A stretch of 64,000 bases of DNA from Escherichia coli (lineage in GTDB: Bacteria; Pseudomonadota; Gammaproteobacteria; Enterobacterales; Enterobacteriaceae): NCBI RefSeq assembly GCF_003334785.1, contig NZ_QOWV01000008.1; one strand, given 5' to 3'. This document shows, piece after piece, positions 1-59,433 of this stretch. A program made the position numbers and the translations under genes. Below the pieces are notes generated by a model, which was not told where the DNA came from, did no database searches, and saw nothing but the letters and a program-made list of their open reading frames with translations. Position 1 is the stretch's first letter. Each line of letters begins with the position of its first letter.

Positions 1-1180
<1,180 letters not shown>

Positions 1181-1195
1181 TATTGCTGACACGGT

Positions 1196-1240
1196 TTTCC
1201 CCTCACCCTAACCCTCTCCCCAGAGGGGCGAGGGGACCGA
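1196..1240. repeat. Near-palindromic intergenic repeat (ccctctcccc-agag-gggcgagggg), boxC/BIME-like
   Basis: Imperfect inverted repeat read directly between pstA and pstB; family assignment is tentative. Confidence 0.35.
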
Positions 1241-1278
1241 CCGAGCGCCTTTTTGACTCTGTACACGGTTAACACTTT

Positions 1279-1312
1279 GCCGGATGCGGCGTGAACGCCT
1301 GATCCGGCCTAC
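1279..1312. repeat. REP (palindromic unit) element
   Basis: gccggatgcggcgtgaacgcctgatccggcctac matches REP consensus. Confidence 0.7.
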
Positions 1313-1323
1313 GGTAAGCCTGA

Positions 1324-2136
<813 letters not shown>

Positions 2137-2150
2137 TTCAGGAGTGCGTT

Positions 2151-2876
2151 ATGGACAGTCTCAATCTTAATAAACATATTTCCGGCCAGTTCAACGCCGA
2201 ACTGGAAAGTATCCGCACGCAGGTGATGACCATGGGCGGCATGGTGGAGCAGCAGCTTTCTGATGCAATCACCGCGATGCATAACCAGGACAGCGATCTG
2301 GCGAAGCGCGTCATCGAAGGCGACAAGAACGTCAACATGATGGAAGTGGCGATCGATGAAGCCTGCGTGCGCATTATCGCCAAACGTCAGCCGACGGCGA
2401 GCGACCTGCGACTGGTTATGGTGATCAGTAAAACCATTGCCGAGCTGGAGCGTATTGGCGACGTGGCGGACAAAATCTGCCGTACTGCGCTGGAGAAATT
2501 CTCCCAGCAGCATCAGCCGTTGCTGGTAAGTCTGGAGTCGCTGGGCCGTCATACCATCCAGATGCTGCACGACGTGCTGGACGCGTTCGCGCGGATGGAC
2601 ATTGACGAAGCGGTACGTATTTATCGTGAAGATAAAAAAGTCGATCAGGAATACGAAGGTATTGTTCGTCAACTGATGACCTACATGATGGAAGATTCGC
2701 GTACCATTCCGAGCGTACTTACTGCGCTGTTCTGCGCGCGTTCTATCGAACGTATTGGCGACCGCTGCCAGAATATTTGTGAGTTTATCTTCTACTACGT
2801 GAAGGGGCAGGATTTCCGTCACGTCGGTGGCGATGAGCTGGATAAACTGCTGGCGGGGAAAGATAGCGACAAATAA
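2151..2876 (+). CDS. phoU: Phosphate signalling regulator PhoU
   Basis: 241 aa from [13 protein letters not shown] with caggag RBS; the ORF track start at 2133 is an upstream in-frame extension. Confidence 0.95.
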
Positions 2877-2884
2877 TTCACCAG

Positions 2885-2916
2885 ACAAATCCCAATAACT
2901 TAATTATTGGGATTTG
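2885..2916 (+). terminator. Intrinsic terminator after phoU
   Basis: Hairpin aaatcccaataa/ttattgggattt followed by T-rich tract. Confidence 0.6.
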
Positions 2917-3071
2917 TTATATATAACTTTATAAATTCCTAAAATTACACAAAGTTAATAACTGCGAGCATGGTCATATTTTTATCAATAGCGCATTGCT
3001 ATTTTCTCTGCACGCAATTAAATTAATTTCCGAACCTGGATGTTCGTTATAAAAACCATTAATAAATGACT

Positions 3072-11755
<8,684 letters not shown>

Positions 11756-34568: not shown

Positions 34569-35258
34569 ATGACTCTCAATAAAACCGATCGCATTGTCAT
34601 TACGCTGGGTAAACAGATCGTTCACGGCAAATACGTGCCAGGCTCGCCGCTTCCGGCTGAGGCGGAACTCTGTGAGGAGTTTGCAACCTCGCGCAACATC
34701 ATCCGTGAGGTGTTCCGTTCGCTGATGGCGAAGCGGCTGATTGAAATGAAACGTTATCGCGGGGCGTTTGTGGCACCGCGTAACCAGTGGAATTACCTCG
34801 ACACTGACGTACTGCAATGGGTGCTGGAAAATGACTACGACCCACGGCTTATCAGTGCCATGAGCGAAGTGCGAAATCTGGTGGAACCGGCGATTGCCCG
34901 TTGGGCAGCAGAGCGCGCGACTTCCAGCGATCTGGCGCAGATTGAATCGGCGCTGAACGAGATGATTGCCAACAATCAGGACCGCGAAGCGTTTAACGAA
35001 GCGGATATTCGCTACCACGAGGCGGTGCTGCAGTCGGTGCATAACCCGGTGTTACAGCAACTTAGCATTGCGATCAGTTCGCTGCAGCGGGCGGTTTTTG
35101 AACGAACCTGGATGGGCGATGAGGCCAACATGCCGCAAACGCTCCAGGAACATAAGGCGCTGTTCGATGCGATACGACATCAGGACGGCGATGCGGCAGA
35201 GCAGGCGGCGCTTACCATGATCGCCAGCTCGACACGAAGGTTAAAGGAAATCACATGA
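34569..35258 (+). CDS. dgoR: GntR/FadR-family repressor DgoR
   Basis: 229-aa ORF with N-terminal HTH. Confidence 0.95.
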   Translation: MTLNKTDRIVITLGKQIVHGKYVPGSPLPAEAELCEEFATSRNIIREVFRSLMAKRLIEMKRYRGAFVAPRNQWNYLDTDVLQWVLENDYDPRLISAMSEVRNLVEPAIARWAAERATSSDLAQIESALNEMIANNQDREAFNEADIRYHEAVLQSVHNPVLQQLSIAISSLQRAVFERTWMGDEANMPQTLQEHKALFDAIRHQDGDAAEQAALTMIASSTRRLKEIT

Positions 35259-36132
35259 CAGCTCGCTACATCGCAATTGACTGGGGATCGACCAATCTGC
35301 GCGCCTGGCTTTATCAGGGCGACCACTGCCTGGAGAGCAGGCAATCAGAAGCAGGCGTCACGCGCCTGAACGGAAAATCTCCGGCTGCGGTGTTAGCAGA
35401 AGTCACGACCGACTGGCGTGAAGAGAAAACGCCAGTGGTAATGGCAGGAATGGTTGGCAGCAACGTCGGCTGGAAAGTTGCACCGTATTTATCTGTTCCT
35501 GCCTGTTTTTCGTCTATTGGCGAACAATTAACGTCAGTTGGCGACAATATCTGGATTATTCCCGGATTATGTGTCTCTCATGACGATACCACAATGTGAT
35601 GCGCGGCGAAGAAACACAATTGATCGGCGCGCGAGCTCTGGCTCCTTCCTCTCTTTATGTCATGCCCGGAACCCATTGCAAATGGGTGCAGGCCGATAGC
35701 CAGCAAATCAACGATTTTCGCACCGTGATGACCGGTGAATTACATCATTTACTGTTAAATCACTCATTGATTGGCGCAGGTTTGCCGCCGCAGGAAAACT
35801 CTGCCGATGCCTTCACAGCTGGCCTTGAGCGTGGTCTTAATACGCCCGCCATATTGCCGCAGCTTTTTGAAGTTCGCGCCTCGCATGTGCTGGGAACACT
35901 TCCCCGCGAACAGGTCAGCGAATTTCTCTCTGGTTTGTTGATTGGCGCAGAGGTCGCCAGTATGCGCGACTATGTGGCCCATCAACACGCCATCACCCTT
36001 GTCGCCGGAACATCGCTGACCGCGCGCTACCAGCAAGCCTTTCAGGCGATGGGTTGCGACGTGACGGCGGTGGCGGGCGACACGGCATTTCAGGCTGGTA
36101 TAAGGAGCATCGCTCATGCAGTGGCAAACTAA
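35255..36132 (+). pseudogene. dgoK: 2-dehydro-3-deoxygalactonokinase dgoK, split by an apparent -1 frameshift near 35585-35598
   Basis: Two overlapping ORFs (35255..35599 and 35596..36132) in different frames together span 878 nt; one added base would give a single 292-codon ORF. Confidence 0.7.
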
Positions 36133-46124: not shown

Positions 46125-49445
<3,321 letters not shown>

Positions 49446-49611: not shown

Positions 49612-51564
49612 ATGAATTCGTTACAAATCTTGAGTTTTGTCGGTTTTACGCTGCTGGTGGCGGTGATCACCTGGTGGAAGGTCCGCAAAACAGATACCGG
49701 ATCGCAACAAGGCTATTTTCTTGCCGGACGTTCACTAAAAGCGCCGGTTATTGCCGCTTCGTTAATGCTAACCAACCTTTCCACGGAACAACTGGTCGGC
49801 CTTTCCGGGCAGGCCTACAAAAGCGGCATGTCGGTGATGGGCTGGGAAGTGACTTCAGCGGTGACGCTGATCTTCCTCGCGCTAATCTTTTTACCGCGCT
49901 ATCTGAAGCGCGGCATTGCCACCATCCCCGATTTTCTGGAGGAACGTTATGATAAAACGACGCGTATTATCATCGACTTCTGCTTCCTAATTGCCACCGG
50001 CGTCTGCTTTCTGCCGATTGTTCTCTACTCCGGCGCGTTGGCGCTCAACAGCCTGTTTCACGTCGGGGAATCGCTACAGATTTCTCACGGTGCGGCTATC
50101 TGGCTACTGGTAATTTTGCTTGGTCTGGCGGGAATTTTGTATGCGGTGATCGGCGGACTGCGCGCAATGGCAGTGGCGGACTCCATCAACGGTATTGGGC
50201 TGGTTATCGGCGGGTTGATGGTGCCGGTATTTGGCCTGATCGCGATGGGCAAGGGCAGCTTTATGCAGGGCATTGAGCAACTCACCACCGTTCACGCCGA
50301 GAAATTAAACTCAATCGGTGGCCCGACCGATCCCTTGCCGATTGGCGCGGCATTTACCGGTTTGATTCTGGTGAACACCTTTTACTGGTGTACAAATCAG
50401 GGCATCGTGCAACGCACGCTGGCGTCAAAAAGCCTGGCGGAAGGGCAAAAGGGGGCGCTGTTAACGGCGGTGCTGAAAATGCTCGACCCGCTGGTACTGG
50501 TGCTGCCAGGGTTGATTGCGTTTCATCTGTATCAGGATTTACCGAAAGCCGACATGGCCTACCCGACGCTGGTCAATAACGTTCTGCCAGTGCCAATGGT
50601 GGGTTTCTTCGGCGCGGTGTTATTTGGTGCGGTGATCAGTACCTTCAACGGCTTTCTGAATAGCGCCAGTACGTTATTCAGTATGGGTATTTACCGTCGC
50701 ATCATTAACCAGAATGCCGAGCCGCAGCAGCTGGTCACCGTCGGGCGCAAATTTGGTTTCTTTATCGCTATCGTTTCGGTGCTGGTCGCGCCGTGGATCG
50801 CCAACGCGCCGCAGGGGCTGTATAGCTGGATGAAACAGCTCAACGGCATTTACAACGTGCCGCTGGTTACCATCATCATTATGGGCTTTTTCTTCCCGCG
50901 CATCCCGGCGCTGGCGGCAAAAGTAGCGATGGGGATTGGCATAATCAGCTACATCACCATCAACTATCTGGTGAAGTTCGACTTCCATTTCCTCTATGTG
51001 CTGGCCTGTACGTTCTGCATCAACGTGGTCGTGATGCTGGTGATCGGTTTTATCAAACCGCGCGCCACGCCGTTCACCTTCAAAGATGCGTTTGCGGTGG
51101 ACATGAAACCGTGGAAAAACGTCAAGATCGCGTCAATTGGCATCCTGTTCGCGATGATTGGCGTCTATGCCGGGCTGGCTGAATTCGGCGGCTACGGTAC
51201 GCGCTGGTTAGCGATGATCAGTTATTTCATTGCCGCCGTAGTGATTGTCTACCTGATTTTTGACAGCTGGCGGCGGAAGGTATTCGCTTTAATTCCGCCT
51301 ACACCTGTTCACCGGTTTGTACGCCTGCACGGGCCGGACTATTTACCGGTATCTACGCTAACCAGTCCGGCCCGTGGACCAACAACGTCGCGCCAGGCAA
51401 AAACATCTCCACTATGGGGCGCTACTTTAAGGATGCCGGCTATCACACCTGTTACATCGGCAAATGGCATCTCGACGGTCATGACTATTTCGGCACTGGC
51501 GAGTGTCCGCCGGAGTGGGACGCTGATTACTGGTTCGATGGGGCGAACTATCTTAGCGAACTGA
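49612..51564 (+). CDS. yidK: SSS-family Na+/solute symporter YidK-like; abnormal 3' end that reads into yidJ out of frame
   Basis: Transporter-like sequence to about 51262, then 94 low-complexity codons overlapping the sulfatase gene. Confidence 0.75.
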   Translation: MNSLQILSFVGFTLLVAVITWWKVRKTDTGSQQGYFLAGRSLKAPVIAASLMLTNLSTEQLVGLSGQAYKSGMSVMGWEVTSAVTLIFLALIFLPRYLKRGIATIPDFLEERYDKTTRIIIDFCFLIATGVCFLPIVLYSGALALNSLFHVGESLQISHGAAIWLLVILLGLAGILYAVIGGLRAMAVADSINGIGLVIGGLMVPVFGLIAMGKGSFMQGIEQLTTVHAEKLNSIGGPTDPLPIGAAFTGLILVNTFYWCTNQGIVQRTLASKSLAEGQKGALLTAVLKMLDPLVLVLPGLIAFHLYQDLPKADMAYPTLVNNVLPVPMVGFFGAVLFGAVISTFNGFLNSASTLFSMGIYRRIINQNAEPQQLVTVGRKFGFFIAIVSVLVAPWIANAPQGLYSWMKQLNGIYNVPLVTIIIMGFFFPRIPALAAKVAMGIGIISYITINYLVKFDFHFLYVLACTFCINVVVMLVIGFIKPRATPFTFKDAFAVDMKPWKNVKIASIGILFAMIGVYAGLAEFGGYGTRWLAMISYFIAAVVIVYLIFDSWRRKVFALIPPTPVHRFVRLHGPDYLPVSTLTSPARGPTTSRQAKTSPLWGATLRMPAITPVTSANGISTVMTISALASVRRSGTLITGSMGRTILAN

Positions 51565-52658
51565 CGGAAAAAGAGATTAGCCTGTGGCGCAATGGCCTAA
51601 ACAGCGTCGAAGATTTACAGGCGAACCATATCGACGAAACCTTCACCTGGGCGCATCGTATCAGCAATCGGGCGGTGGATTTTCTGCAACAGCCTGCGCG
51701 CGCAGACGAGCCTTTCCTGATGGTGGTTTCGTATGATGAGCCGCATCACCCGTTCACCTGTCCGGTGGAGTATTTAGAGAAATACGCTGATTTTTACTAC
51801 GAGCTGGGCGAGAAAGCACAGGATGACCTGGCTAACAAACCGGAACATCACCGCTTATGGGCGCAGGCGATGCCATCGCCAGTCGGTGATGACGGGCTTT
51901 ATCACCATCCGCTCTATTTTGCCTGTAATGACTTTGTTGATGACCAAATCGGACGGGTCATCAATGCCTTAACGCCAGAGCAACGTGAAAATACGTGGGT
52001 TATTTATACCTCCGATCACGGCGAAATGATGGGCGCACATAAGCTGATCAGTAAAGGGGCGGCGATGTATGACGACATCACCCGCATTCCGCTGATCATC
52101 CGTTCGCCGCAAGGGGAGCGGCGACAGGTCGATACGCCAGTCAGTCATATCGATTTACTGCCGACAATGATGGCGCTGGCAGATATTGAAAAACCAGAGA
52201 TTCTGCCGGGGGAAAATATCCTTGCCGTGAAAGAGCCACGCGGCGTGATGGTGGAATTTAACCGCTACGAGATTGAGCATGACAGCTTTGGCGGTTTTAT
52301 TCCGGTGCGTTGCTGGGTGACGGATGACTTTAAACTGGTACTCAACCTCTTCACCAGTGATGAACTTTACGATCGCCGTAATGACCCAAATGAAATGCAT
52401 AACCTGATCGATGATATCCGTTTTGCAGACGTTCGCAGCAAAATGCATGACGCCTTATTGGATTACATGGACAAAATTCGCGATCCGTTCCGCAGTTACC
52501 AATGGAGTCTGCGTCCGTGGCGTAAAGATGCACGGCCGCGCTGGATGGGGGCGTTTCGTCCACGTCCACAAGATGGCTATTCGCCAGTTGTACGCGACTA
52601 TGACACCGGCCTACCGACACAAGGGGTGAAGGTGGAGGAGAAAAAACAGAAGTTCTGA
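51264..52658 (+). pseudogene. yidJ: Cys-type sulfatase YidJ-like lacking its N-terminal ~30-35 residues
   Basis: Sulfatase homology starts at 51264 right after an in-frame TGA; C-x-P-x-R motif CTPAR at 51318-51332; first in-frame ATG only at 51414. Confidence 0.6.
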
Positions 52659-53609: not shown

Positions 53610-53961
53610 CCGCAAAGCCAGACGCATTGCCGACCCAGGACTGCAGCCGGAGCGCACATCACTGGCGTGGTTTCGTACCATGCTGGGCTACGGCGCGTTG
53701 ATGGCGTTGGCTATCAAACACAACTGGCACCAGGCGGGCATGTTATTCTGGATTTCGATTGGCATTCTCGCCATCGTGGCGCTGATCCTCTGGCACTACA
53801 CCCGTAATCGCAATTTAATGGATGTCACGAATAGCGATTTTTCCCAATTTCACGTAGTCCGTGACAAATTTTTGATCTCCCTCGCGGTGTTATCTCTCGC
53901 AATACTGTTTGCTGTAACGCATATACATCAACTTATCGTATTTATTGAGAGAGTCGCATGA
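53599..53961 (+). CDS. yidG: Inner membrane protein YidG
   Basis: 120-aa ORF; overlaps yidH by 11 nt. Confidence 0.9.
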   Translation: MPDSRKARRIADPGLQPERTSLAWFRTMLGYGALMALAIKHNWHQAGMLFWISIGILAIVALILWHYTRNRNLMDVTNSDFSQFHVVRDKFLISLAVLSLAILFAVTHIHQLIVFIERVA

Positions 53962-54455
53962 CAGGAAGTCAGGTCATTGATGCTGAAGAGGACAGGCATA
54001 AACTGGTTGTAGAGTACAAGGATGCTCTGCAACCTGCCGATTTTTATCACAATTTCAAACAGCGGGGCATCCGCTCCGTACAGCTCATTCCCTATCTTGA
54101 ATTTGATGACCGGGGCGATCTGACGGCCGCTTCGGTGACAGCAGAGCTGTGGGGGAAATTTTTAATTGCCCTGTTCGAGTGTTGGGTGCGGGCAGATATC
54201 AGTCGTATCTCGATTGAGCTTTTTGACGCCACCTTACAAAAATGGTGTGGCAGCGAAAACCCGCAACCGCGCTGTGACTGCCAGGCGTGCGACTGGCATC
54301 GCCTGTGCCCGCACGCTCGGCAGGAGACGCCAGACAGCGTGCTTTGTGCGGGCTATCAGGCGTTTTATTCTTACTCCGCACCGCATATGCGGGTGATGCG
54401 TGATCTGATAAAGCAGCATCGTTCTCCCATGGAGCTGATGACGATGCTGCGGTGA
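53958..54455 (+). CDS. yidF: YidF, Cys-rich SPASM-like remnant of an anaerobic sulfatase-maturase-type protein
   Basis: 165-aa ORF with CDCQACDWHRLCPH cluster; no CxxxCxxC radical-SAM motif. Confidence 0.8.
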   Translation: MTGSQVIDAEEDRHKLVVEYKDALQPADFYHNFKQRGIRSVQLIPYLEFDDRGDLTAASVTAELWGKFLIALFECWVRADISRISIELFDATLQKWCGSENPQPRCDCQACDWHRLCPHARQETPDSVLCAGYQAFYSYSAPHMRVMRDLIKQHRSPMELMTMLR

Positions 54456-56736: not shown

Positions 56737-56784
56737 CGTTTAAGCATCTCCCGGAAAGTCGGCCCAGAAGAAAAGGACTGGAGC

Positions 56785-58842: not shown

Positions 58843-59433
58843 ATGATCACCGTTGCCCTTATAGACGATCACCTCATCGTCCGCTCCGGCTTTGCGCAGC
58901 TGCTGGGGCTGGAACCTGATTTGCAGGTAGTTGCCGAGTTTGGTTCGGGGCGCGAGGCGCTGGCGGGGCTGCCGGGGCGCGGTGTGCAGGTGTGTATTTG
59001 CGATATCTCCATGCCCGATATCTCCGGTCTGGAGCTGCTAAGCCAGCTGCCGAAAGGTATGGCGACGATTATGCTCTCCGTTCACGACAGTCCTGCGCTG
59101 GTTGAGCAGGCGCTTAACGCGGGGGCACGCGGCTTTCTTTCCAAACGCTGTAGCCCGGATGAACTCATTGCTGCGGTGCATACGGTTGCCACGGGCGGCT
59201 GTTATCTGACGCCGGATATTGCCATTAAACTGGCATCCGGTCGTCAGGACCCGCTAACCAAACGTGAACGCCAGGTGGCGGAAAAACTGGCGCAAGGAAT
59301 GGCGGTGAAAGAGATTGCCGCCGAACTGGGCTTGTCACCGAAAACGGTACACGTCCATCGCGCCAATCTGATGGAAAAACTGGGCGTCAGTAACGACGTA
59401 GAGCTGGCGCGCCGCATGTTTGATGGCTGGTGA
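58843..59433 (+). CDS. uhpA: Response regulator UhpA
   Basis: 196-aa ORF, receiver domain plus LuxR-type HTH. Confidence 0.97.

Follow-up and report, generated by a model that had tools for sequence, protein, structure and literature searches.

A 159-bp deletion flanked by short direct repeats at the yidK-yidJ boundary in a K-12-like lineage of Escherichia coli

In Escherichia coli K-12, yidK and yidJ (b3679-b3678) encode a putative transporter of the SSS family and a putative S1 sulfatase/phosphatase, respectively, and the two genes, of 571 and 497 amino acids (aa), are translationally coupled by a 4-nucleotide (nt) ATGA overlap. In the literature up to 2025 on yidJ and yidK, YidJ appears only as a "putative sulfatase/phosphatase," and no description of the deletion reported here was found. 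Here we describe the locus in a 64,000-nt stretch of the E. coli assembly GCF_003334785.1 (contig NZ_QOWV01000008.1), referred to below as the window. The window resembles K-12 in its neighboring genes (yidL, yidI, yidH, yidG, yidF, and emrD) and differs from it in the retained 3 kb by one synonymous single-nucleotide polymorphism (SNP). Unlike K-12, it lacks 159 bp, and as a consequence the YidK reading frame extends to 650 aa instead of 571 and YidJ is without residues 1 to 34 and its start codon. The locus is no different from that of the complete genome FORC 064, with which it shares the same junction and 6.2 kb of identical sequence.

Slipped-strand mispairing, a process that is typically RecA independent, is classically recognized by deletion ends that fall in a perfect short direct repeat, of which one copy is kept, and by a junction free of foreign DNA. 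The junction in the window is like those of the classical E. coli deletions between short direct repeats, with an 8-bp repeat, a distance of 159 bp, one copy kept, and no mobile element. Taking the evidence together, we consider it very probable that a repeat-mediated deletion of 159 bp arose a single time in a K-12-like lineage and that it represents a near-neutral loss of the yidK-yidJ pair.

Deletion junction and its occurrence in complete genomes

Alignment of the window with K-12 MG1655 gave a single 159-bp gap at the yidK/yidJ boundary, the remainder being colinear; besides the gap, the synonymous SNP, at position 50238, was the only difference over the ~3 kb of retained yidK-yidJ. In K-12, the gap is flanked by two perfect 8-bp direct repeats, CTGGCGGC, located at nt 1656 to 1663 and nt 1815 to 1822 of the yidK..yidJ stretch (spacing, 159 bp) and corresponding to yidK codons 552 to 555 (copy 1) and yidJ codons 35 to 37 (copy 2). 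At any two specified positions, a match of 8 bp would occur by chance with a probability of ~1.5e-5. Imperfect homology continued upstream of the repeat, as TTGA(C/T)AG(-/T)CTGGCGGC. The exact matches to the left and to the right of the gap overlapped by 8 bp, and the single leftover copy of the repeat was found without any foreign or inserted DNA:

51267-51274, no strand assigned: deletion junction, with the sole remaining copy of CTGGCGGC (breakpoints mapped against MLI104K2 and K-12)

Lost by the deletion were the last 17 codons of yidK and its stop codon, the ATGA overlap, and the start of yidJ with its codons 1 to 34. The original prediction, made from the window sequence, had proposed a deletion of 150 to 180 bp spanning the 3' end of yidK and the 5' end of yidJ on the basis of lengths of 571 and 497 aa for the two proteins; these lengths are correct in K-12, and the gap lies exactly at the proposed place and within the proposed size. 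No intact reference colinear with the window was found, and intact K-12 shows the gap.

The top BLAST match, MLI104K2, was tried as the intact reference and gave a deletion of 160 bp; it was dropped in favor of K-12 MG1655, which gave 159 bp. In MLI104K2 (NZ_CP116925.1, L001 3158-3227), ~60 nt of homopolymer-rich nonsense (GGGGGGGGGG, AAAAAAAAAAAAAA) stand in place of the real 5' sequence of yidJ, the extra segment relative to the window is partly homopolymer garbage, and yidJ of this strain is annotated as frameshifted. This stretch looks like an assembly or polishing error, which makes MLI104K2 a misleading top match.

The occurrence of the junction was assessed in 5,426 complete E. coli genomes, in 5,116 of which the locus was present, as defined by a match to a 1.2-kb junction query. 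The same colinear junction was found in 45 genomes (0.9% of those with the locus), 44 of which were 100% and 1 of which was 99.9% identical to the window over 1.2 kb. Conversely, 151 nt internal to the deletion were present in 5,070 of the 5,116 genomes, at 96 to 100% identity, and the 46 genomes without this segment were the 45 carriers of the junction and FLI21, which has a different deletion. Among the carriers are ML35, FORC 064, O157:H16 98-3133, O2:H16 BA92, NCTC9087, and NCTC9100, and their sources include humans, chickens, pigs, a dog, a crow, lettuce, and cucumber from several continents. The deletion is thus an allele in the population, flanked by an 8-bp direct repeat, neither of which was part of the original prediction.

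These data also bear on whether sequencing or assembly, for example through collapse of a repeat, could have created the junction in the window as an artefact. Local misassembly at short direct repeats is conceivable, and the public record of MLI104K2 is garbled at exactly the yidK-yidJ junction site. However, an 8-bp repeat is far too short for assembly collapse, and the complete genomes sharing the identical junction came from a range of laboratories, hosts, countries, and decades. An artefact is excluded because 45 independently assembled complete genomes show the same junction, and we attach practically no probability to it.

Predicted products of yidJ and yidK

The features of the window that concern the sulfatase gene are as follows:

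51261-51263, plus strand: TGA stop codon in the sulfatase frame, directly upstream of the retained yidJ (read directly from the sequence)
51267-52658, plus strand: yidJ remnant, codons 35 to 497 and stop codon (alignment to K-12, Pfam, and annotation as "missing N-terminus" by the Prokaryotic Genome Annotation Pipeline [PGAP])
51318-51332, plus strand: CTPAR motif with Cys52, the formylglycine precursor, upstream of any usable start codon
51414-52658, plus strand: longest ATG-initiated open reading frame (ORF) in the sulfatase frame, 414 aa from Met84, covering the C-terminal five-sixths of YidJ, without Asp12, Cys52, or a Shine-Dalgarno-like sequence

Homology to YidJ begins at Leu35 (51267), and the codon for Cys52 lies at 51318. 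Residues 1 to 34, MKRPNFLFVMTDTQATNMVGCYSGKPLNTQNIDS, have been lost together with the ribosome-binding region and the start codon, whereas codons 35 to 497 of the remnant are identical to those of K-12 YidJ. The remaining sequence is homologous to YidJ and to other sulfatases and is an S1 sulfatase by descent. The Pfam Sulfatase domain (PF00884) matched the remnant from model position 32 of 301 (E = 8.5e-63), the first 31 positions being absent, and SGSH_C was matched as well. Solved S1 sulfatases (9ihk, 6pt4, and others) aligned to K-12 YidJ from residue 2 and covered residues 2 to 34. In these alignments Asp12 of K-12 YidJ, in the strand "FVMTDT," coincided with the conserved first-strand Asp of 9ihk and 6pt4, a position that serves as a metal ligand in the sulfatase family. 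Asp12 is deleted in the window.

No ATG, GTG, or TTG codon was found in the sulfatase frame between the TGA at 51261 to 51263 and Met84 (51414), and because no canonical start codon is present in this interval, Cys52 is not translatable. The noncanonical starts CTG at 51267 and ATT at 51282 were considered and rejected: neither is preceded by a Shine-Dalgarno sequence at a suitable distance, and translation from either would not restore Asp12 or the first strand. A full PF00884 domain, the N-terminal Asp, and a translatable C-x-P-x-R motif, as expected in an intact S1 sulfatase, were all lacking. Since there is no start codon before the catalytic Cys52 and the metal-binding Asp12 is lost, yidJ of the window, as judged from its sequence, is a null allele, from which active sulfatase is predicted not to be made.

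What had been proposed for the sulfatase gene was borne out, at or near the positions given. The absence of ~30 to 35 N-terminal residues proved to be the absence of exactly 34, and the position of the first in-frame ATG (51414), downstream of the Cys of CTPAR (51318 to 51332), was verified. The TGA at 51261 to 51263 was also correctly placed, but homology had been said to start straight after it, at 51264; it starts at 51267, and the Gln codon at 51264 to 51266 does not belong to YidJ. That full-length homologues might begin at the methionine of MGRYFK was contradicted both by the Pfam match from position 32 of 301 and by the solved sulfatases, which align to residues 2 to 34.

The transporter ORF consists of two parts:

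49612-51273, plus strand: retained part of yidK, codons 1 to 554 of 571 (identical to K-12 YidK through residue 554)
51274-51564, plus strand: new 96-codon tail of the yidK ORF and stop codon (yidJ sequence in the wrong frame)

The ORF at 49612 to 51564 encodes 650 aa. The match to K-12 YidK ends at ...VIVYLIFDSWR (nt 51273), and the last 17 residues, HRHDPAVTFTPDGKDSL, have been lost. Although 159 is a multiple of 3, yidK reads through yidJ out of frame because the two genes use different frames; the resulting tail of 96 out-of-frame codons is 35% Pro, Ser, and Thr and ends with the stop codon at 51562 to 51564. A tail of yidJ sequence read in the wrong frame had been foreseen, with a transition at about residue 550 and 94 codons, values that are corrected here to residue 554 and 96 codons. 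The Pfam SSF domain (PF00474) was complete in the 650-aa product (model positions 1 to 405 of 406, residues 35 to 442, E = 1.5e-49), the last hydrophobic helix of YidK was kept, and no sulfatase domain was found in this product by Pfam. The product therefore has the complete domain of the SSS family and is without the native C terminus and stop codon.

In RefSeq records of carriers, PGAP annotated yidK as "incomplete; missing C-terminus" and yidJ as "incomplete; missing N-terminus" (FORC64_RS00115/RS00120, ML35, and LR-64-2). The exact 650-aa protein has a UniRef entry and was present in at least 1,000 contigs, and the exact 414-aa remnant was present in 798 contigs. The deletion is an ordinary pseudogenising allele, which public annotation has already catalogued as pseudogenes.

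For yidK itself, the same observations leave room for a different reading, in which the gene is no pseudogene, the 650-aa product is made and still transports, and the sulfatase alone has been lost. Its promoter, start codon, and reading frame are unchanged, only 17 C-terminal residues are replaced, which leaves the full SSF domain and the last hydrophobic helix in place, and the allele persists in strains from several continents and hosts. On the other hand, PGAP calls yidK a pseudogene missing its C terminus, a 96-residue out-of-frame tail may harm folding, insertion, or stability, and a transporter without its partner enzyme would have no obvious use. On the sequence features at hand, we regard continued transport by YidK as a real possibility, though with the odds somewhat against it.

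Direction, mechanism, and origin of the deletion

The intact yidK-yidJ form is ancestral, because it is found in ~99% of E. coli genomes and in all identity bands, because it codes for conserved parts of the sulfatase structure, and because 571-aa homologues of YidK exist elsewhere, namely, in Citrobacter and Klebsiella. The reverse, a short ancestral form to which other E. coli strains added 159 bp, is already refuted and has a negligible probability. The segment was present in 5,070 of the 5,116 genomes, across identity bands, and it encodes both the native C terminus of YidK and, in the sulfatase, the first strand with its metal-binding Asp, which can be aligned to solved sulfatases of unrelated bacteria; evidence in support of a gain was not found.

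The scar would most likely be explained by replication slippage, in which the two CTGGCGGC repeats mispaired and a microhomology-mediated deletion of 159 bp resulted. Such slippage would remove one copy of the repeat and all sequence between the copies, and with it the ATGA overlap, where the stop codon of yidK meets the start codon of yidJ and through which the genes are coupled; ribosomes translating yidK would then run out of frame through yidJ to yield the 650-aa product. The deletion probably arose once in a K-12-like lineage and would then have been inherited vertically, in strains such as ML35, FORC 064, O157:H16 98-3133, NCTC9087, and NCTC9100, as a neutral or near-neutral loss of a dispensable, uncharacterised transporter-sulfatase pair.

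Relatedness of the carriers was assessed at an unlinked core region, gshA-gabD, 1.2 Mb away, which replaced an adjacent first choice that proved to be a mobile island. The 9 best matches to the carrier FORC 064 in gshA-gabD were all carriers, and carriers made up 25 of the best 60 matches versus 0.5 expected (hypergeometric P ~1e-39). At this unlinked locus, the carriers thus had other carriers as their closest relatives. Closer to the junction, a carrier sub-haplotype consisting of yidX 34260A and a 1-bp frameshift in dgoK was shared by the window, LR-64-2, OZ121069, and E423, with JKHS016 one further SNP off, and all five are carriers. A second sub-haplotype marker, 59199T, was found in 25 genomes, 24 of which were carriers.

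On the question of a single origin, the 1.2-kb flanks were uninformative, as there was no true SNP in them; the apparent 99.8% identity of intact genomes over the 1.2 kb arose where BLAST pieces overlapped at the junction. A possible isogenic pair, intact LR-64-1 and deleted LR-64-2, was ruled out, since the two are separate strains with differences in islands and alleles.

Several observations weigh against a single slippage event followed by strictly vertical inheritance. Z1323CEC0013 has an intact yidK-yidJ and yet shares 56484T, 59199T, and 62836T with Z1323CEC0003, in which the segment is deleted. An intact genome is therefore nested among carrier haplotypes, and a strict single origin without recombination is violated. 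With this genome, all four combinations of deletion state and allele at 59199 exist, and this requires that recombination took place at least once, bringing in either the intact segment or the downstream flank of Z1323CEC0013, or that the deletion recurred. In the 25-kb flanks, the closest intact genomes (BR1220, NCTC9041, and others) are 1 SNP away from the window, the window-private one at 56747, and because these flanks are too conserved, no linked marker tags the deletion. As to the mechanism, slippage and its RecA independence are inferred from the scar itself, and no hairpin or inverted repeat that might favor slippage was found in the deleted segment (z = 0.37), a point of difference from the classical short-repeat deletions. 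Z1323CEC0013 (NZ_CP148427.1, L011 22813-26018) comes from the same chicken collection as Z1323CEC0003.

The junction might, alternatively, be a hot spot at which the same 159-bp slippage occurred several times independently, so that the carriers would not form one clade. A deletion mediated by repeats always yields the same junction, and identical breakpoints are thus no proof of common descent; moreover, the four combinations of deletion state with C or T at 59199, the fact that intact Z1323CEC0013 shares its flank haplotype, the most derived one, with deleted Z1323CEC0003, and the essential identity of the closest intact genomes over the 25-kb flank would all fit recurrence. However, the repeat-bearing segment is present in nearly all genomes and just 45 of 5,116 carry the deletion, none of them on a divergent flank background of 95 to 99% identity; all 45 were at least 99.9% identical to the window. 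Carriers were also strongly enriched among nearest relatives at the unlinked locus, and one deletion with one recombination event is simpler than at least three deletions. We therefore consider independent recurrence unlikely. The most economical account is that a single deletion was passed on vertically and that Z1323CEC0013 later took part in one recombination event.

Less probable still, in our estimation, is the broader proposal that the CTGGCGGC pair is a recurrent slippage hot spot or that loss of YidJ with an active, tail-extended YidK is selectively favored in the widespread K-12-like lineage, the carriers of which come from humans, poultry, pigs, and produce. If either were true, intact Z1323CEC0013 would represent repeated gain and loss of the allele, and the junction would serve as a small-scale natural experiment on this uncharacterised pair of genes.

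Decay of the locus and its neighborhood

Other lesions were found in the same gene pair. FLI21 (NZ_CP139808.1, L014 3022-4944) carries an independent deletion that, like that of the window, joins yidK to yidJ; unlike the latter, it is 1,283 bp long, has other breakpoints, occurs in a single genome, and joins approximately the first 330 codons of yidK to the 3' part of yidJ, so that the fusion ends with the authentic C terminus of YidJ. The 640-aa fusion product of FLI21 (WP_322444208.1) is annotated as an ordinary symporter. In GN06098 (NZ_CP147616.1, L015 2124-3618; 96.9% identity), a 1-bp insertion near codon 112 splits yidJ into two coding sequences, and yidI is absent; two sulfatase coding sequences were likewise annotated in several other genomes with ~97.7% identity to the window. 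In strain 300709 (NZ_CP025903.1), IS1A is inserted in yidK, the locus being otherwise K-12-like. A match to the 1.2-kb junction query was absent from 310 of the 5,426 complete genomes. Together with the allele of the window, the independent lesions in FLI21, GN06098, and 300709 and the 310 nonmatching genomes point to a dispensable locus that is under relaxed selection and decaying in E. coli.

Upstream of yidK lies an intact regulatory gene:

48552-49445, minus strand: yidL, AraC-type regulator, divergent and intact (annotation of the identical FORC 064 stretch and ORF list)

Upstream of yidL, glvG (family 4 glycosyl hydrolase; 47741 to 48555) is frameshifted in the window, in K-12, and in every genome inspected. 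Downstream, yidF (53958 to 54455) codes for no more than a fragment of 165 aa, which is annotated as a radical SAM protein; the radical SAM enzymes that mature sulfatases have about double this length when complete. The frameshift in glvG and the yidF fragment are consistent with general decay of the neighborhood.

Two further differences were noted elsewhere in the window. In dgoK (2-dehydro-3-deoxygalactonokinase; 35255 to 36130), a 1-bp deletion (AA to A) at ~35588 to 35589 ends the 292-aa product after 114 aa. The only complete genomes with this lesion were a few carriers of the yidK-yidJ deletion (LR-64-2, OZ121069, E423, and, nearly, JKHS016), and PGAP annotated dgoK as frameshifted in LR-64-2. 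The window-private SNP at 56747, a C-to-T change, lies between the attenuator terminator of ivbL and the start codon of ilvB (56785); it was absent from all six aligned genomes, and no complete genome matched the window exactly over 25 kb, each being separated from it by at least 2 SNPs, this private one among them.

The finding matters little beyond careful annotation. For the strain of the window and related strains, yidJ is best regarded as a null allele and yidK as a gene with an altered C terminus, and the 650-aa "symporter" and 414-aa "sulfatase" in databases are products of the deletion, not natural full-length variants. Carriers such as ML35 and NCTC9087 are natural yidJ knockouts for functional work on this uncharacterised pair.

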